Part shown: in pieces, positions 11,262 to 58,451 of the stretch
Position numbering within the stretch: position 1 is the first letter of the stretch
Layout of the letters: each line of letters starts with the position of its first letter
From: Escherichia coli
Lineage (GTDB): Bacteria; Pseudomonadota; Gammaproteobacteria; Enterobacterales; Enterobacteriaceae
DNA: 64,000 nucleotides
Direction: 5' to 3' (one strand)
Assembly (NCBI RefSeq): GCF_003334765.1
Contig: NZ_QOWT01000003.1
Program-made: the position numbers and the translations under genes
The notes under the pieces: model-generated
The model's database searches: none
What the model saw: the letters and a program-made list of their open reading frames with translations, nothing else
Told to the model about the DNA's origin: nothing

Positions 11262-11338
<77 letters not shown>

Positions 11339-15579: not shown

Positions 15580-15807
15580 ATGAAAAAGACTGCCGCAATT
15601 ATTTCTGCCTGTATGCTGACTTTTGCCCTGAGCGCCTGTTCCGGTTCGAACTATGTGATGCACACCAATGACGGACGTACCATCGTCTCTGACGGCAAAC
15701 CACAGACTGATAACGATACCGGTATGATTTCGTATAAAGACGCTAATGGCAACAAACAGCAGATCAACCGTACTGACGTGAAAGAGATGGTCGAACTGGA
15801 TCAGTAA
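15580..15807 (+). CDS. ygdI: Small DUF903-family lipoprotein
   Basis: 75-aa ORF with lipobox LSAC; recognised as YgdI; start taken at the second of two tandem ATGs. Confidence 0.8.
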
Positions 15808-15823
15808 TTCGCGATCGCAAGGT

Positions 15824-16029
15824 AAAAAAAAGCACCGCAATTAGGCGGTGCTACATTAATCACTATGGACAGACAGGGTAAATGTACAGGAAGTGAAAAA
15901 AGGTAGCTTTGCTACCATGGTCTGAATCGCAGACCAATTGCAAACACAACAACACAACATCACAACCGTAAGCCAAAAGTTCACCAGAACACGCATTCCG
16001 ATAAAACTTTTCGTTCCGGCTCAGGAAGT
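15824..16029 (-). ncRNA. gcvB: GcvB small regulatory RNA (Hfq-dependent, regulates amino-acid transporters)
   Basis: Reverse complement reads ACTTCCTGAGCCGGAACGAAAAG...GCACCGCCTAATTGCGGTGCTTTTTTT, the 206-nt GcvB sequence with GU-rich R1 region and intrinsic terminator; divergent from gcvA. Confidence 0.92.
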
Positions 16030-16157
16030 GCCGCCACTATAGGTATTTGCTGGTAGAAGCTCAACGGACAATTTATAATGGCTAAGATTAAAAAAACTAA
16101 TAGGTTACATAGTGTGATCTAATTGTTAAATTCATTTAACATCAAAGTTTAATAGCC

Positions 16158-23173: not shown

Positions 23174-24490
23174 TCAGTTAGTTGCCGTTTGAGAACGGAA
23201 ACGGGCAAAGATAAAGATGACCGCGAAGCAGAGTGCGGGGATCAGTTCAGCAGTGGGGATGTTGCCCGCCGCGTCACTGACAAAACCCATGACCGGAGTG
23301 ACAATACCGCCGCCAATAATGGTCATAACGATGAAGGACGAACCATATTTGGTGTCCTGGCCGAGATTCTTAATGCCCAGCGAGAAGATTGTTGGGTACT
23401 GAATCGACATAAAGGCGCTGCATAAAGTCAGGGCTATTAAGCCCACATGACCGCCAGCGAAGGCTGAGATCAGGCACAGTGCCATAGCGATTAATGCGTA
23501 GGCGGCCAGGACTTTGTGTGGTGCGAAGCGACTGATGAGCCAGGTACCGGTGAAACGACCAATAAAGAAGCACACCATGGTTCCGGTTAAATAGTTAGCG
23601 GCAAAGCCTGCAGTCATACCTGGAATTTCTTCTACAGCGTAGCGAATCAAATAGCTCCAGCAGGCCGTTTGTGCGCCGACATAGCAGAATTGCGCTAATA
23701 CCGCCCAGCGCCAGTGGCGAATACGCGCCAGGCGAGAAAGCGATGCGGAGAACGATCCTTGTTTGGCGTCACTGTGATTATCACTCTGCAATGCCGGGAA
23801 TTTCGTCAGCATGATCAGCAGGGCGACCAGTAACACGATAGCCACGATGATCATATAAGGTGTCTGTACCGATAATACCAGGCTGTGTTTATACGCACTC
23901 AATTGCTCTGGAGACATTTTATCGAGAACGTCTTGCGATTGATGTGGCACGTTAGACAAAATAAGACTTTGCCCAAAGACAACCGCGATAATTGCGCCAA
24001 ACGAGTTAAATGTTTGCGCAAGATTTAAGCGGAAGTGACCACTACTTTCCGGCCCTAATACCGTAACAAAAGGGTTTGCGGCAGTTTCCAGACAACCTAA
24101 TCCGGCTGCAATAATAAATAGGCCAACTAAAAATAAGGTGTAGTTCATTATTTCTGCGGCGGGCCAGAATAATGCAGCACCCAAGGCATATAAAAATAAC
24201 CCGGTAATAATCCCTGCTTTATAACTGAGTTTTTTCATCAATATCCCAGCAGGGATTGGGATAATGAAATAACCAAAGTAAAAGGCCGATTGGATCAGGC
24301 CAGCCTGGAAATTTGTCAGCGTAAAAGCCTGCTGGAATTGAGGTAATAAAATGTCGTTAAGGTTATTGGCTACCGCCCAAAGAAAAAACAGTGAGCACAG
24401 CAGCGCGAATGGAATAATGTAACTTCTGCTTTGCCCTGCATCTTTATCTACCGCACGGTAACTCTGCGTTTGTATTGATGTGTTTCCCAT
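23174..24490 (-). CDS. fucP: L-fucose:H+ symporter (MFS)
   Basis: 438-aa polytopic membrane ORF recognised as FucP. Confidence 0.95.
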   Translation of the reverse strand: MGNTSIQTQSYRAVDKDAGQSRSYIIPFALLCSLFFLWAVANNLNDILLPQFQQAFTLTNFQAGLIQSAFYFGYFIIPIPAGILMKKLSYKAGIITGLFLYALGAALFWPAAEIMNYTLFLVGLFIIAAGLGCLETAANPFVTVLGPESSGHFRLNLAQTFNSFGAIIAVVFGQSLILSNVPHQSQDVLDKMSPEQLSAYKHSLVLSVQTPYMIIVAIVLLVALLIMLTKFPALQSDNHSDAKQGSFSASLSRLARIRHWRWAVLAQFCYVGAQTACWSYLIRYAVEEIPGMTAGFAANYLTGTMVCFFIGRFTGTWLISRFAPHKVLAAYALIAMALCLISAFAGGHVGLIALTLCSAFMSIQYPTIFSLGIKNLGQDTKYGSSFIVMTIIGGGIVTPVMGFVSDAAGNIPTAELIPALCFAVIFIFARFRSQTATN

Positions 24491-24678
24491 AGCATCCTCT
24501 TAGGTTCAGAAGCTTAAGCACGTAATCGGTTATGTTTTCAAAAGTGCAAAACCAGCGAGTTCGGGCTTCATATCAGTGAATATTTGCCTGTCTGAAATGA
24601 ACTCATGGATTCATTTTCAAATAAAAAACGCTCTGTAATATGACGGCGGTCACACTTATTAGCTAGAAGGTGACTTTA

Positions 24679-24694
24679 TGTGACTACCATCACT
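24679..24694. promoter_or_regulatory. CRP-like site in the fucPIK/fucAO divergent control region
   Basis: TGTGA-CTACCA-TCACT seen in sequence; one mismatch from the TGTGA-N6-TCACA consensus. Confidence 0.5.
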
Positions 24695-24752
24695 TTAATA
24701 ATCGAAATTTCATGCCCGTTTCAGAAAATAAATCATAAAAAACACAAATCAG

Positions 24753-24847
24753 ATGACCGTATTAATTGTTTGTGCCGAAAACGGTCATTCCGGGCTTGGA
24801 GGAATAGAAAAATGACCGTTTTGATAAATATTTTTAAGAGCGGTCAT
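24753..24847. promoter_or_regulatory. Four evenly spaced ATGACCGT/ACGGTCAT half-sites in alternating orientation (putative FucR operators)
   Basis: ATGACCGT at 24753-24760 and 24812-24819; ACGGTCAT at 24781-24788 and (C)GGTCAT at 24841-24847; about 30-bp periodicity. Confidence 0.45.
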
Positions 24848-25036
24848 TTTTAATGGGGTTATAAAAAGAGAACTTGCAGTTATTTACTGTGATTAGTTGA
24901 ACCAGGTCACAAAATATAAGCTTGTGAATTTCTTTCTTGTTAATCAGGAAGAAGATGGTGGGTAATTAAACGGCTAATTCAATAGTGTGAAAGGAACAAC
25001 ATTATTGCCCTGTTTTGAATCAGAGAGAGGTAGCTA

Positions 25037-30496: not shown

Positions 30497-31052
30497 CTAT
30501 TTCTCCTGGAGGAATGCAAATAATTCAGCTTTTAGCCAGTTCAGCCCGGGAAGGTGCCTGACCGTAAAAATGAAATCTGTCTATCGGCGATGGCTTAATC
30601 ATTTACCGCCGTAATAATTTGAGGGCGGAAAGATACACACAAGTTATGTATCTATCAGTGATCTTGATCTCAAATACAATAATCTACTTGGAAGATAGAT
30701 TATCCCAACGCTTTACTCTGTAAATCAAAAGTAAAAGAGAATTTAAGGGCAATATTTGCCCATTAAACGACATCTGACTTCTTCCGGGGCGCGCAATATA
30801 TGTAGGTTGAACTGAAAAAATCAATACTTTTAGTTAATCATGGCGATAATTTCTTTTTCATAGCGATAAAATACGGTTTATGAAAATAGGGAAACGTTTG
30901 CGTTGCAACATAAATTGTATGACATATTAACTGTGATGATATTTGTCGCGTGAGGGTGGTAAGAAACATTCATATAACAAATGAAATGAGTTGATGAGTA
31001 AGTGACCAAAAACGAGAAAACCCGGCAACAAACGTCACCGGGGGAGCGGAGA

Positions 31053-50768: not shown

Positions 50769-52082
<1,314 letters not shown>

Positions 52083-52105
52083 GACTGACTTTATCTGATT
52101 TAAAA

Positions 52106-52132
52106 ATGCCAGCCTCCGGGCTGGCATTTTTT
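52106..52132 (+). terminator. Rho-independent terminator of eno
   Basis: Hairpin GCCAGCC-TCCGG-GCTGGC followed by a T-run. Confidence 0.85.
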
Positions 52133-52141
52133 ATGGTTGAG

Positions 52142-53014
52142 TTACCAGCGGCCGGATGCGCCGCCACCTCCAGAAGAACCGCCCCCGCCGCTAAATCCGC
52201 CGCTATCTGAGCCTCCAGCGGAACCGCTGTTGTCTGAATGATAACTTCTACCAGATGCTCTTTTCTGAAGTACACATAAACAGGTAAAGACCATAAATAT
52301 GGTGAAAGTAAAAAAGAAGGAAAATACAGCAATGGAAAAAATTTTATCGGAGAACAGGAATAAATCTAAAAGATAGATTGCTGAAATACAGACTCCACTT
52401 TTACATGCGCGACAAAAATTACTGCCTTGATGAAAAAACCAGAAAGGGAAGAACATCACTGCAAATACCCAAAAAATAGCAAAGTAATAATGATCACTGG
52501 AAGACGCTGATTCACTTTCTGAAGGATTAGTCGGATATTGGTGTTGTGAAGTGAGTTGGTTATTCAAAGCGTTTATAGCTAGCTCTAATCCCTTAGCTAA
52601 TTTTTGTTGTTTAAATGCGGGTATCATGTTGCTACGGATGATATCTCCAGCCAGAGCATCGGTTACCTTTTCTTCCAGCCCATAACCTACCTGGATGCGG
52701 ACAGTGCGATCCGACCAGGCAACAACGATCAGTATCCCATCATTACGTTTGGCATCTCCTAAACGCCAATTGTCAAAAACTCTTGTAGCATATTGTTCAA
52801 TTGTCTCGTCTTTGGTTGTGGGAACAATTAATACGGCAATTTGCACTTGGGTATTATTGAAAATAGATTCTAACTTGTGCGTCAGTTCTTTCTTTTCTTG
52901 TGAGTTTAAGCTACTCGTAAGATCCGTAACTTGTTGCTGTAATTGTGGGACAATAGTTGGTTGGGCTGCAACAAAGGAACATACGAAAGTGAACATTAGT
53001 ATGAAATAGCGCAT
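52142..53014 (-). CDS. ygcG: TPM-domain membrane protein with Gly/Ser-rich C-terminal tail
   Basis: ORF track 52142..53083; likely start [18 protein letters not shown] (signal peptide; plus-strand CAT 53012-53014) gives 290 aa; TPM/phosphatase-like domain, TM segments, then [16 protein letters not shown] tail; AT-rich codons. Confidence 0.8.
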
Positions 53015-53306
53015 TATAAATTTCTCATTAAATCTGGATAAATAAATTGACGGCGGCATCGGTAATTTTATATTCGTTATCATTAAAAACTAATACAGAA
53101 AAAATAAATATAATTTTGGTGAATGTTTTGACATGATTAAATCCATTTTCTTTATTTTCTTCTGACATAATACGTTACTCCCTTTAATTATTAACGATAT
53201 GTTTCGCATTTTTCTTTAAACCTGCCTGTAACAGAATGTTAATAAGACATGATTGTTGTGGCAGGATCTGCAATAATTAACAATTATCCACTTCACAGAG
53301 AATGCT

Positions 53307-53978
53307 ATGCAGTACCCGATTAACGAGATGTTCCAGACCCTGCAAGGTGAGGGTTACTTTACCGGCGTTCCCGCCATTTTTATTCGTTTACAGGGATGCC
53401 CGGTTGGCTGTGCCTGGTGCGACACCAAACACACCTGGGAAAAGCTTGAGGATCGGGAAGTCTCCCTTTTCAGCATTCTGGCGAAGACCAAAGAGAGTGA
53501 TAAGTGGGGGGCTGCGAGCAGTGAAGATTTGCTGGCTGTCATTGGTCGCCAGGGATACACCGCGCGGCATGTGGTGATTACGGGTGGTGAGCCTTGCATT
53601 CATGATTTGCTGCCACTGACTGATCTGCTCGAAAAGAACGGTTTTAGCTGCCAGATCGAAACCAGTGGTACTCATGAGGTACGCTGCACACCGAATACCT
53701 GGGTTACCGTATCGCCAAAGCTGAACATGCGCGGCGGCTATGAAGTGTTGTCACAGGCACTGGAGCGAGCCAACGAAATCAAGCATCCAGTGGGGCGCGT
53801 ACGCGATATTGAAGCACTGGATGAACTACTGGCAACGCTGACCGATGATAAACCGCGAGTCATTGCACTGCAGCCGATTAGCCAAAAGGATGATGCCACA
53901 CGTTTGTGCATTGAAACCTGCATTGCGCGTAATTGGCGTTTGTCGATGCAAACACATAAATATCTAAATATTGCCTGA
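53307..53978 (+). CDS. queE: 7-carboxy-7-deazaguanine synthase (radical SAM, queuosine pathway)
   Basis: 223-aa ORF with cysteine motif CxxxCxxC (RLQGCPVGCAWCDT); recognised as QueE (YgcF). Confidence 0.92.
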   Translation: MQYPINEMFQTLQGEGYFTGVPAIFIRLQGCPVGCAWCDTKHTWEKLEDREVSLFSILAKTKESDKWGAASSEDLLAVIGRQGYTARHVVITGGEPCIHDLLPLTDLLEKNGFSCQIETSGTHEVRCTPNTWVTVSPKLNMRGGYEVLSQALERANEIKHPVGRVRDIEALDELLATLTDDKPRVIALQPISQKDDATRLCIETCIARNWRLSMQTHKYLNIA

Positions 53979-54099
53979 TTAAACATTTATAAGCGTTATA
54001 AATGGGTGGAACCTGTAAAGACTTCTACTCATTTATATTGTTTGTCGCCTCTGAAAACTCCTCCATTTTACCCATCCAGGGCTAATCATTAGCATTCTC

Positions 54100-54317
54100 T
54101 ACAAATTCTGTGGCATTAATTTTTCGCTGGAGTGAAAATTATTGCGGTAAAGTTTGGTAGATTTTAGTTTGTATAGAGTTATTTTAAATATTTACCTTTT
54201 TAATCAATGGATTAAGTGCTCTTTAACATAATGGATGTGTTGTTTGTGTGATACTATAAAGTTGGTAGATTGTGACTGGCTTAAAAAATCATTAATTAAT
54301 AATAGGTTATGTTTAGA
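54100..54317 (+). promoter_or_regulatory. AT-rich CRISPR leader (promoter-containing) directly upstream of the first repeat
   Basis: AT-rich tract ending ...CTGGCTTAAAAAATCATTAATTAATAATAGGTTATGTTTAGA immediately before repeat 1; upstream boundary approximate. Confidence 0.7.
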
Positions 54318-54712
54318 GTGTTCCCCGCGCCAGCGGGGATAAACCGGCAAAAACCGGGCAATCGCAAAAAGGCGTAATGTGTTCCCCGCGCCAGCGGGGA
54401 TAAACCTGTGTTTGCGGCATTAACGCTCACCAGCATTTCGTGTTCCCCGCGCCAGCGGGGATAAACCGACGTGGTCATGGGTGCTGCTGTTGCAGAGCCA
54501 GTGTTCCCCGCGCCAGCGGGGATAAACCGAGCAGATACACGGCTTTGTATTCCGTGCGCCCGTGTTCCCCGCGCCAGCGGGGATAAACCGAATAGCAATA
54601 GTCCATAGATTTGCGAAAACAGGTGTTCCCCGCGCCAGCGGGGATAAACCGGAGCCTGACGAGACTACTGAGGCCGTTCTGTCGAGTTCCCCGCGCCAGC
54701 GGGGATAAACCA
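54318..54712 (+). CRISPR. Type I-E CRISPR array, 7 repeats and 6 spacers of 32 bp, leader-proximal end at 54318
   Basis: 29-bp repeat GTGTTCCCCGCGCCAGCGGGGATAAACCG at 54318, 54379, 54440, 54501, 54562, 54623 and 54684 with 61-bp period; repeat 2 ends CCT; terminal repeat is degenerate (GAG...ACCA). Confidence 0.96.
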
Positions 54713-55166
54713 CCATATAACCCGTTATCTCTTTCTCAAGTTTTTATATTAGCAGTACTTGTAATAAGCAACATATCCACGTAACACCTCATGTTCAAAA
54801 TAGTTCTCCATGCCAGAGAGGTTCACAATTATCGATACAAAAAATTAAATTTAATCAAAGTGTTATTTGTATGATTCTTAAATCGTTAAGAAATTTTAAT
54901 CTATTATTTTTTTAATATTGAATTAATGCCTGTTAATTTTTTCTTTAGAATAACAGTATATTTTTTAAGCTTGTTATTCATTGGTTAAGTAATAAATCTG
55001 GAAGTTTGTCTTTGTTTTGAGGCTAATGAGTGGTTTTACATAACCGCCTCTATACGCTGTTGATGAATAGTTCTTATGAATAAAGATATCCAGTTCATAC
55101 TTTAAGTGAAAATTGATAAAGTGCGATTCGTATTGTCTTTTATTCTAAAGACATCGAGTGTAGTTA

Positions 55167-55304
55167 ATATTCCTTGTAAAAACAGGGATAAACCGAACTA
55201 GTTAAAGTTTTTATTATGTTCCCTGCATCAGCGGGGATAAACCGGACTTGTTATCATTTTTTAAGTTGTCGAACTTATGTTCCCCGCGTCAGCGGGGATA
55301 ACCA
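55167..55304 (+). CRISPR. Degenerate I-E mini-array: 2 recognisable repeats, 1 clean 32-bp spacer, 1 eroded repeat
   Basis: ATGTTCCCTGCATCAGCGGGGATAAACCG (55216-55244), spacer GACTTGTTATCATTTTTTAAGTTGTCGAACTT (55245-55276), ATGTTCCCCGCGTCAGCGGGGATAACC (55277-55303); eroded repeat ending GGGATAAACCG at about 55195. Confidence 0.75.
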
Positions 55305-55350
55305 TTCAGGTATGTTCAGGCCGGGCAGTTTCCCGCCCGGCCTTCCTCAC

Positions 55351-56829
55351 TTACGCATTCGACCAGCTCTGGATCGAATCCACATTCCCCAATTCCCCAT
55401 GCATCACTTCATACGATTTTTTCAGGATCACATCAGTATGTTTGGTTAGGTCTTTGAAAATGCCTTTATTCATCGCGTCGTAGCGTTTGGCATTGCTCTC
55501 AATCGGTATAAAGATATCTTTCACGCGAACCATGTTATCGACAGCCGTTGCGTAATCCGGGTATAGCCCCAGACCTACCGCTGTATTAATCGCTGCCCCC
55601 AGGCTTGCACAACCGTTAATGGCGTTACGTCGTGCCGGAAGGTTGAACACGTCGGCAAAAATCTGCATAAACAGATCGCTGTTCGAACCGCCGCCAGTAA
55701 TGATCACATGCTTCGCAAAGTGATTCATTTCATTACACATATTGTCGTAATTGTTCTTCAGCGTCAGCGCCACGCTTTCCAGTATCGAACGATATATCCA
55801 TGCGTAATCCATGCTGGAATCAAAGCCGATCATAATCCCGCGTTTGTACGGTTCCCACGGATTGGTCAGCCAGTCCAGCACCGTCATCAGACCATTACAG
55901 CCTGGCGGCACACAAGAAGCTTTTTTGTTGAGTAAATCTTCCGGTGAAAGATCCTGCGCCCTGGCATCCTGAATTAACGACTCGCCTAGCATGTCGCGCA
56001 GCCAGCTCACCGTCCACATGCCTTTGCGAATACCGTAACCTTCATACAGCAATGTTTGCGGAATAGAAGACATAATCGGCCAGTACGCTACTGGATCTTT
56101 CGGCAGTGCTTTGCCGTTCATCATCAATGCGATGTAAGTGCCAAGAGAAATTACCGCCGTTTCATCATCCAGTAATCCGGCCCCCAGAGCTTCTACCGGT
56201 TTATCACTGGTGGTACAAACAACCGGCAGTCCTGCCGGGAAATGTGTCGCCAGTGCGGCTTGTGGTGTGATATGTCCGAGGACGGTGCCAGGCATTTGCA
56301 CATCAAACAGCATATGACGGGGGATATTAAACTTATCCATTACCGCAGCATCTTCGCTCCATGCCCAGCTCTTATAATCCACCGGCCACTGACCAAAATA
56401 GTTGGCGATATTGTCTTTAAACTCGCCGGTTAAGCGATGCGTCAGATAACCCGAAAAAGAGGTGACATATGCCACGTCAGGGTTAGTGTGTTCGTAAGGG
56501 CGTGTAACGCGTGCATCCTGCCAGCTAATCAACGGCGCAGCAGGCGTGCCATCGGCTTTCAATAACGCACGGCAGCAACGGATGGATCCCAGACCAATAC
56601 CGACAATATCTTCTTTATTCCCGGCAAACTGACTCATCAAATCGTGACCGGCAAAACATAATGATGCCCATAAATCGTCGTCAGGATGTTCTGCAGTATC
56701 GGCATCTGGCGTGTGCATCGGCTGTAATAAGCCTTTGCCTTCGCAAACCACGTTACCTTCCAGATCGTACATCACCACTTTTGTGCTCTGACTTCCGCCA
56801 TCAATCCCTATGATGTATTTTTTCGACAT
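55351..56829 (-). CDS. ygcE: FGGY-family carbohydrate kinase, substrate unknown
   Basis: 492-aa ORF recognised as YgcE; FGGY N- and C-terminal domains. Confidence 0.88.
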   Translation of the reverse strand: MSKKYIIGIDGGSQSTKVVMYDLEGNVVCEGKGLLQPMHTPDADTAEHPDDDLWASLCFAGHDLMSQFAGNKEDIVGIGLGSIRCCRALLKADGTPAAPLISWQDARVTRPYEHTNPDVAYVTSFSGYLTHRLTGEFKDNIANYFGQWPVDYKSWAWSEDAAVMDKFNIPRHMLFDVQMPGTVLGHITPQAALATHFPAGLPVVCTTSDKPVEALGAGLLDDETAVISLGTYIALMMNGKALPKDPVAYWPIMSSIPQTLLYEGYGIRKGMWTVSWLRDMLGESLIQDARAQDLSPEDLLNKKASCVPPGCNGLMTVLDWLTNPWEPYKRGIMIGFDSSMDYAWIYRSILESVALTLKNNYDNMCNEMNHFAKHVIITGGGSNSDLFMQIFADVFNLPARRNAINGCASLGAAINTAVGLGLYPDYATAVDNMVRVKDIFIPIESNAKRYDAMNKGIFKDLTKHTDVILKKSYEVMHGELGNVDSIQSWSNA

Positions 56830-58133: not shown

Positions 58134-58311
58134 ATCGTATTCCCATTTGTAATAGACAAAAAAAAGAGAAAAGTAAGCCGCCCTTTCAGGTGGATTACTT
58201 TTCTCAGGTCTCTAGTAATTGAAATAATAAATAACATGGAAAGCAGAGGTGTTGTGTGAGAGTAATCACGCTTCTGCTTTTTAAAATTATTTGACAATAC
58301 GAATATCACAC

Positions 58312-58327
58312 TGTGATTACGATCACA
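58312..58327. promoter_or_regulatory. Consensus CRP site in the yqcE/ygcW divergent region
   Basis: TGTGA-TTACGA-TCACA, a perfect match to both CRP half-sites, overlapped by a second palindrome TCACACTGTGA; TTGACA at 58291-58296. Confidence 0.6.
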
Positions 58328-58380
58328 TTAGCAGTTATGCCCTTATGCTAAAAATTATCTCCAGTTACCAGAGATAATGA

Positions 58381-58427
58381 GAAAGGTAACTTCCCTCTCG
58401 CGGGGGAAGTTACCTTTCTTTTTTTTT
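58381..58427 (+). terminator. Intrinsic-terminator-like hairpin about 25 nt upstream of the ygcW start codon (possible attenuator or leader structure)
   Basis: Perfect 15-bp stem GAAAGGTAACTTCCC / GGGAAGTTACCTTTC with 8-nt loop, followed by 9 consecutive T. Confidence 0.6.
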
Positions 58428-58451
58428 GCCTTACGGAAATTGGAGCTAACT

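Follow-up and report, generated by a model that had tools for sequence, protein, structure and literature searches.

The interval between eno and ygcE in Escherichia coli carries ygcG, yqcG, queE and the CRISPR-II locus, and its low guanine-plus-cytosine (GC) content raises the question of whether it was acquired as one foreign block. We examined this interval (52142-55350) within a 64,000-nt stretch of E. coli assembly GCF_003334765.1 (contig NZ_QOWT01000003.1), here called the window, in whose numbering all coordinates are given. The gene order is that of K-12, eno–ygcG–yqcG–queE–CRISPR-II–ygcE, and positions 52000-55500 matched E. coli chromosomes of the K-12 lineage, such as J53, at 100% identity; the gene coordinates were carried onto the window from the RefSeq annotation of J53. 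A preliminary description had taken the interval as one AT-rich islet, either horizontally acquired or fast evolving. From the composition, codon bias, haplotypes, synteny, homology and fold, all observed here, we consider it likely that the islet in fact consists of two hypervariable intergenic slots that vary independently, one on each side of the core gene queE, and that the AT-richness of each has its own cause. Slot 1 lies between eno and queE, and slot 2 between queE and ygcE.

The low average GC content was confirmed, with 41.7% over 52142-55350 vs 50.7% over the whole window, and 18 of the 37 400-bp segments below 42% GC fell inside this interval, which makes up 5% of the window. The lowest 400-bp value of the window (27.3%, z ~ -4.8) was found at 54801-55200. 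However, the AT-richness was not continuous but a mosaic of AT-rich and ordinary or GC-rich segments: ygcG has 40.1% GC, the ygcG–queE spacer 27.8%, queE 51.6%, the leader of the CRISPR2.3 array 30.4%, the CRISPR2.3 main array 59.7%, the inter-array block 28.0% and the degenerate array CRISPR2.2 39.6%. Thus, with queE at 51.6% and the main array at 59.7%, the contiguous atypical composition expected of a single island was not found. The gene queE (53307-53978, plus strand), which encodes a 7-carboxy-7-deazaguanine synthase, was also ordinary in its GC at third codon positions (GC3, 0.549) and in its ratio of nonsynonymous to synonymous substitution rates (dN/dS, 0.014).

To compare the locus across the family, loci of 80 Enterobacteriaceae species were fetched with QueE as the anchor. 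QueE showed 85-100% amino acid identity across them, and the order pyrG–eno–[slot 1]–queE–[slot 2]–queD/ygcE was conserved in the 80 species. Strict conservation of the whole segment, which the preliminary description had named as an argument against acquisition, was not seen, as both slots were variable and queE was core. Slot 1 ranged from 121 to 5,199 bp, being shorter than 300 bp in 9 of 65 loci and at least 2 kb in 38. Its cargo included an RpiR/MurR-like regulator with a NanE-like epimerase and a putative phosphotransferase-like permease (read from the sequence, with no profile scan), and elsewhere a thioester-reductase-like short-chain dehydrogenase/reductase, transporters, an alcohol dehydrogenase or genes for TPM-domain proteins, all mutually unrelated. 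Slot 2 had a median length of ~70-100 bp across species; downstream of queE, 59 loci had queD and 17 had ygcE, mostly at a distance of no more than ~100 bp. Type I-E repeats were detected in slot 2 in only 6 loci and in slot 1 once, in Klebsiella spallanzanii. In the latter (L026 6152-7433), a 22-repeat type I-E array lies in the eno–queE slot beside lemA and two TPM genes; the array of E. coli is on the other side of queE.

Within E. coli, the two slots were found to vary independently. One locus (L006) has a K-12-type ygcG with sucrose genes in place of CRISPR, and the lemA cassette of slot 1 occurs with or without CRISPR arrays (L002, L087 and L088). As the slots assort independently, the linkage between ygcG and CRISPR is positional rather than functional. 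Since queE is of normal composition and syntenic in 80 species, and since the slots vary independently, the interval is better described as two slots than as one island.

Chromosomal integration hotspots between conserved core genes are a known concept in comparative genomics. The present locus resembles them in that its core flanks (eno, queE and queD/ygcE) are conserved, while the contents are variable and unrelated across the 80 species; the K-12 version differs in that no integrase or mobile-element signature was seen. Turnover of the slots appears to proceed by homologous recombination in the conserved flanks together with IS1 activity. We also observed that the synonymous divergence of queE between K-12 and a B2-type strain was 0.28, against 0.04-0.11 for eno, pyrG and mazG, which suggests deep or recombinant alleles around the hotspot.

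In Escherichia, slot 1 carries a lemA–TPM operon, of which at least four haplotypes exist; these were counted in E. coli over 5,426 complete genomes. The K-12-type core (yqcG and ygcG) was present in ~3,929 of them (~72%) and an O157-type cassette, with lemA and three TPM genes, in ~1,103; in a four-gene variant, the eno-proximal gene is ygcG-like. A further 300-350 genomes matched the lemA/tpmA end of the cassette only, at ~85% identity, and the examined example of this group had lemA, a TPM pseudogene and a 120-aa open reading frame (ORF). Positions 52085-52216, which cover the terminator and the end of ygcG encoding the Gly-rich tail, were common to all haplotypes at 92-95% identity (94% to the O157 haplotype), and every lemA/TPM cassette gene was below genome GC (41-48%). 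IS1 insertions and deletions were seen in slot 1 as well. IS1 copies lie in or beside ygcG in several E. coli (L005 9292-11229; H1, H30 and H41), and in strain HZDC01 IS1 copies occupy the place of a missing stretch that runs from ygcG into ygcW.

The window itself holds no lemA–TPM operon, as the stub yqcG alone precedes ygcG; the intact pair was found in other E. coli haplotypes. Because the four-gene form (lemA with three TPM genes) is that of E. albertii and E. whittamii, and because LemA is immediately upstream in five of six distant YgcG-like homologues, the K-12 haplotype would be a derived, reduced form. Compared with known lemA–TPM pairs (PF04011 with PF04536), K-12 differs in having a 46-aa stub as the LemA partner and an apparently mosaic allele as ygcG.

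The gene ygcG (52142-53014, minus strand, 290 aa in the RefSeq annotation) had the lowest GC (0.401), the lowest GC3 (0.357, z ~ -3.7; window mean 0.54) and the lowest codon-adaptation value (0.587) among the 39 long ORFs of the window, and its codon-usage distance was second after that of eno alone. The unusual codon usage noticed earlier was therefore borne out. The most AT-rich part of the gene is the one encoding the transmembrane region (34.7% GC). Its dN/dS was 0.30 vs 0-0.015 for eno, pyrG, mazG and queE, at least about 20-fold above the values of these neighbours; ygcG evolves under relaxed constraint and fast at the protein level. In the claim of a horizontally acquired or fast-evolving segment, the variable presence, the atypical ygcG and its dN/dS all stand, and what falls is the single acquired islet.

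Further examination of ygcG by blastn divided it into two parts. Positions 52085-52837 (minus strand), with the terminator and ygcG codons ~60-290, matched L087, L088 and L008 at 91.6-94.6% nucleotide identity over 753-755 bp, the partner being the eno-proximal 'YgcG family' gene of the four-gene lemA–tpmA–tpmB–ygcG-like haplotype. Against this fourth gene, codons 60-290 showed a synonymous divergence (dS) of 0.13 and a nonsynonymous divergence (dN) of 0.041. On the other hand, the next 263 bp (52838-53100, minus strand), comprising ygcG codons 1-59, a 13-bp gap and the 3′ part of yqcG, were specific to the K-12 type, with no blastn match in the other haplotypes or in the 80 outgroup loci. This segment was present in 3,919 of the 5,426 E. 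coli genomes, always under ygcG/yqcG, and the two 400-bp segments overlapping it (52801 and 52901) had GC values of 0.312 and 0.310. No haplotype combining the K-12-specific piece with a full lemA was found among 3,948 genomes. We consider ygcG a probable mosaic, in which the 3′ three-quarters would come from the eno-proximal TPM gene and the 5′ quarter from another, more AT-rich source. A deletion chimera of the tpmA::tpmC type was rejected, as the first 62 residues resemble the eno-proximal TPM paralogues (42-47%) more than tpmA (29-40%), and the other haplotypes contain no DNA matching the 5′ 263 bp. The mosaic structure of ygcG and the lemA origin of yqcG/ygcG appear to be unreported, although these are minor points.

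The ygcG gene is divergent from queE, as had been stated, but a gene of 46 codons between them had been overlooked: yqcG (53028-53168, minus strand, 24% GC), annotated in RefSeq as encoding a small membrane protein. YqcG residues ~14-43 align in frame with LemA residues ~1-31, with the lipobox Cys lost and the hydrophobic segment retained. In an alignment of six haplotypes, the DNA stayed collinear across queE, the spacer and the 5′ end of lemA; the spacer end (53101-53306) was 79-85% identical across the slot 1 haplotypes, and the pairwise identity was 84%, then 70%. YqcG matched none of the NCBIfam family hidden Markov models (HMMs) and does not belong to the LemA-domain family (PF04011). 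Judging by the collinearity of the DNA, yqcG is most likely a diverged, truncated 5′ stub of lemA and not a LemA family member. An internal in-frame deletion joining the two termini of lemA was rejected, as homology is continuous to lemA codons ~1-31 only, and an earlier global alignment of yqcG with lemA was judged to be noise. We found no paper linking yqcG with LemA in the literature, and this derivation is apparently one unreported detail of the locus.

Comparison of 53028-53168 with L006 6029-6170 revealed a 1-nt indel in yqcG between the K-12-type and B2-type alleles, by which their start codons differ. The B2-type yqcG is labelled as frameshifted in RefSeq, yet the ORF from the lemA-equivalent ATG stays open through the aligned stretch. 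YqcG has been described as envelope-stress related (PMC4447067), and among the small stress-response membrane proteins of E. coli the one annotated as the cell envelope stress response protein YqcG is the same gene at the same coordinates. The gene was called potentially essential in a TraDIS study (PMC5821084), while a deletion strain is viable (PMC4974570); the essentiality call is probably an artefact of a short, AT-rich and H-NS-bound target.

As for the protein, YgcG had been recognised as a TPM-domain protein with a Gly/Ser-rich tail, and both features were found. Residues 29-152 matched the Pfam TPM domain (PF04536, E = 2.5e-37) with full model coverage, and 24 of the last 35 residues are G or S. 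The predicted layout is a signal peptide, a periplasmic TPM domain, three transmembrane helices, a disordered linker and a Gly-rich C-terminus ending in ...GGGGASGRW. The AlphaFold2 (AF2) model had a mean confidence (pLDDT, predicted local distance difference test) of 82, with ~97 over the TPM domain; the helices after this domain span residues 173-192, 198-220 and 225-251 of the model, whose numbering is one lower than that of the protein. The alpha/beta fold of TPM domains was recovered by Foldseek, with BA41 (5anp) matched at E = 3e-12 and a target-normalised TM-score of 0.90; other matches were 7tbr, 2kw7, TLP18.3, Psb32 and subunits of a mycobacterial respiratory supercomplex. By sequence, the solved structures matched were BA41, 7tbr and 2kw7.

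A narrower homologue search gave E. coli variants only, and the family was surveyed by a representative-library search, in which 21,094 representative clusters matched YgcG at E <= 0.001, many of them aligned over residues 1-290. Across 100 homologues, the C-terminal Gly-rich motif (...GGGGASGxW) and invariant G/W columns were kept, so that the tail is a motif of the whole family and not peculiar to YgcG. Three hydrophobic segments follow the TPM domain in 73 of the 100; hydropathy thus favours three transmembrane helices, with which the tail would be cytoplasmic. Most likely, YgcG is a TPM-domain protein that is exported and anchored in the membrane. It resembles the TPM proteins BA41, TLP18.3 and Psb32 in fold, in family-invariant residues and in its signal peptide–TPM–transmembrane–Gly-rich tail architecture. 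The literature is split on the role of TPM domains, between a phosphatase and a chaperone-like assembly factor (PMC11237479). No biochemical activity is known for YgcG, and the preliminary statement that its function is unknown is still true at the experimental level. The lemA/TPM proteins gave no PADLOC match in a defence-system search save one, at E = 0.0075 and with no stretch passing alone, and in a PHROG search matches were obtained for LemA only.

Slot 2 holds the CRISPR-II locus, which consists of CRISPR2.2 and CRISPR2.3 between ygcE and ygcF (queE) (PMC3903273, PMC2886076). It starts with the CRISPR2.3 leader (53979-54317, plus strand, 339 bp, 30.4% GC), which was identified by homology to the leader of the cas-adjacent CRISPR2.1 (z = 8.2), showed 93% identity in E. 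albertii and was present in 4,553 of the 5,426 E. coli genomes. A promoter-bearing leader is reported to adjoin CRISPR2.3 (PMC3903273), and CRISPR leaders are generally AT-rich (PMC2886076). The AT-richness of this leader is a functional property of CRISPR leaders and not evidence of foreign origin. Next to it, the CRISPR2.3 array (54318-54712, plus strand; RefSeq feature 54318-54711, plus strand) has seven 29-nt type I-E repeats and six 32-nt spacers with a period of 61. The degenerate remnant CRISPR2.2 (55167-55305, plus strand) is not a regular type I-E array, as its three repeat-like units are degenerate and spaced 49 and 61 nt from start to start; conservation in E. albertii and E. whittamii covers its last 71 bp, up to ygcE. 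The two arrays formerly counted as both CRISPR arrays are thus CRISPR2.3 and a degenerate CRISPR2.2, while CRISPR2.1 lies ~26 kb further on, outside the window. No cas genes were found in the window; in a K-12 genome identical over 52000-55500, cas3 to cas2 lie ~17-26 kb beyond ygcE.

Between the arrays is a non-coding segment of 454 bp (54713-55166, 28% GC) with the lowest-GC point of the window and no ORF longer than 31 aa wholly inside it. It was present as a single copy in 4,129 of the 5,426 E. coli genomes and was specific to E. coli, being found neither in E. albertii and E. whittamii nor at any other locus compared. Two leaders had been assumed, of which only the queE-proximal one was confirmed: the 454-bp block scored z = 2.0 and 0.0 against the two leaders, which rules out a second leader. 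A phage or plasmid derivation was rejected too, as no phage or genuine plasmid match was found; three 'plasmid' matches were 4.8-4.9-Mb records, presumably mislabelled chromosomes. The block may be an insertion that split an older array and left CRISPR2.2 behind. In position, 29-nt repeat, arrays ~0.5 kb apart (PMC3903273) and a leader only beside CRISPR2.3, the locus shows no material difference from the published type I-E CRISPR-II of E. coli, and our additions are that E. albertii and E. whittamii lack the 454-bp block and that it is not leader-like.

The binding of H-NS, PhoP and sigma-S and the function of the leader are taken from the literature. Two of the 78 published H-NS-bound promoter islands are 'ygcE/queE' and 'queE/ygcG'; both were bound by H-NS in ChIP-chip data (chromatin immunoprecipitation on microarrays), and the adjoining genes were predicted to be foreign (PMC3661553). 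H-NS was also flagged at queE<>yqcG (PMC3946193). These Shavkunov/Ozoline islands match the two GC minima found here, where the mapping relied on spacing instead of common coordinates: with the two islands spaced by 1,805 bp, 54713-55166 is probably the 'ygcE/queE' island, bound by H-NS in all ChIP studies compiled (PMC3661553, Table 1). The H-NS signature that had been put forward as a check was therefore already published for both AT-rich spacers, as were CRISPR-II itself and the foreign flag on ygcG. In the divergent regulatory spacer between yqcG/ygcG and queE (53169-53306; 28% GC over 53084-53306), phosphorylated PhoP binds upstream of queE in electrophoretic mobility shift assays and deletion of yqcG raises queE expression (PMC4974570), and a sigma-S ChIP peak was reported at the yqcG–queE spacer (PMC4447067). 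H-NS-motif-like sites reached 10.3 per kb in 53015-53306, with further densities of 5.9 and 4.4 sites per kb, vs 1.3 per kb over the whole window.

On either side of the two slots lie eno (50784-52082, plus strand) and ygcE (55351-56829, minus strand). The convergent eno and ygcG are separated by a bidirectional intrinsic terminator hairpin (52102-52132; 13-bp stem flanked by an A-run and a T-run), common to all slot 1 haplotypes, with folding energies of -26.9 kcal/mol (z = -6.3) on the plus strand and -20.3 kcal/mol (z = -5.6) on the minus strand. An Rfam scan of 51900-55500 gave only sub-threshold matches to the small RNA family STnc370, on the eno terminator (52068-52169, both strands; 31.8 and 28.7 bits vs a gathering score of 54), which are probably just the hairpin. 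A scan for consensus promoters and terminators showed no enrichment over shuffles and missed the eno terminator itself. Other low-GC patches of the window, at 24301-24900, 30501-30900 and 15801-16100, are ordinary intergenic regions, namely those between the divergent fucP and fucA, upstream of sdaC and between ygdI and gcvA. The yqcE–ygcW divergent spacer (58134-58448) is a further AT-rich patch (36% GC) with an H-NS-associated flag (PMC3946193). Elsewhere in the window, a single tRNA-Met(CAT) gene is found at 11262-11338, where the J53 record has three tandem copies, and the recB–tcdA interval is 220 bp shorter than in J53.

Put together, these observations suggest a history in which slot 1, a cargo hotspot across Enterobacteriaceae, holds in Escherichia a lemA–TPM envelope operon below genome GC. 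The K-12 haplotype would be a decayed form of it, with lemA cut to a 46-codon stub translated as the small protein YqcG and with ygcG as the single TPM gene left. Proteins of the TPM family would normally partner LemA as accessory or chaperone-like factors for membrane complexes; the YgcG of K-12 would have lost this partner and would now be under relaxed, yet not absent, constraint. The yqcG–queE spacer would also serve as the control region of queE, bound by PhoP, sigma-S and H-NS. Slot 2 begins with an AT-rich leader carrying promoter and integration signals, followed by the GC-rich CRISPR2.3, an AT-rich E. coli-specific insertion of 454 bp that appears to split the array and, last, the degenerate CRISPR2.2.

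That a single old island, from ygcG through the CRISPR arrays, arrived as one AT-rich block is extremely improbable. The low mean GC of 52142-55350, the variability of both ends among strains and the published prediction of foreign genes on both sides (PMC3661553) would fit it, but its middle is queE, normal in GC, GC3 and dN/dS and syntenic in 80 species; the two slots vary independently in E. coli and, in most genera, are empty or filled with unrelated cargo, and the interval showed neither an integrase-like ORF nor a tRNA target nor flanking direct repeats. An AT-richness that is purely functional or compositional, with no foreign origin, seems quite unlikely to us; it would reflect a membrane protein rich in Phe, Ile, Asn and Lys, promoter-dense spacers and an AT-requiring leader. 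In its favour, an AT-rich sequence is usual for leaders (PMC2886076), promoter signals of PhoP, sigma-S and RpoD are present in the spacers, and the transmembrane region is the most AT-rich part of ygcG. However, the GC3 of ygcG is 0.36 vs a window mean of 0.54, so its synonymous sites are AT-shifted too; moreover, every lemA/TPM cassette gene is below genome GC, the cassette was confined, among the 80 species, to Escherichia and one Klebsiella species, apart from a few distant variants, and the 454-bp block is E. coli-specific. We also regard it as very unlikely that yqcG and ygcG of K-12 are ancestral and that later insertions or duplications produced the three- and four-gene lemA cassettes. 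The K-12 form is the commonest haplotype, but lemA with three TPM genes is found in E. albertii and E. whittamii, which are sister species, five of the six distant homologues are lemA–TPM pairs, and YqcG aligns to the first ~31 lemA codons only, with the lipobox lost and no LemA HMM match. Finally, it is rather improbable that balancing or diversifying selection holds the lemA–TPM module as alternative haplotypes, with the K-12 remnant co-opted twice; as parts of that joint reading, periplasmic TPM proteins may be phage or colicin targets or envelope-stress modulators, the lemA stub may have become YqcG, and the AT-rich DNA may have become an H-NS/PhoP control limiting the cell-division-blocking activity of QueE.

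Several points weigh against the two-slot account with a decayed operon in slot 1. The 263-bp piece of ygcG has no donor by blastn among the other haplotypes and the 80 loci, so that decay from a four-gene operon specifies the path only in part, and for the 454-bp block no donor was found among phage or plasmid matches or the compared loci. Since its dN/dS is 0.30 and it is retained in ~72% of genomes, ygcG is not a pseudogene and may have a LemA-independent role. Similarly, YqcG may be more than a remnant, because it is reported to be expressed and stress-induced and its ORF is kept in both allele classes. The predicted topology of YgcG comes from hydropathy and the AF2 model, and the latter contains a confident beta segment (pLDDT ~89) in the last six residues of ...ASGRW (52145-52165); if this segment docks on the periplasmic TPM domain, the three-transmembrane topology would be wrong. 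The H-NS occupancy is that of published data, and our own motif scan is weakly informative.

The two-slot account corrects a tempting misreading, in which an AT-rich stretch across a core gene is taken as one island and not as two hotspots. It otherwise changes little, apart from K-12 itself, where ygcG and yqcG would be what remains of a lemA–TPM operon found complete in O157:H7 and in about one-fifth of E. coli. This is relevant to K-12 studies of YgcG, of YqcG and of the PhoP control of queE, because the natural partner gene is missing there and because a ΔyqcG deletion also removes regulatory DNA.

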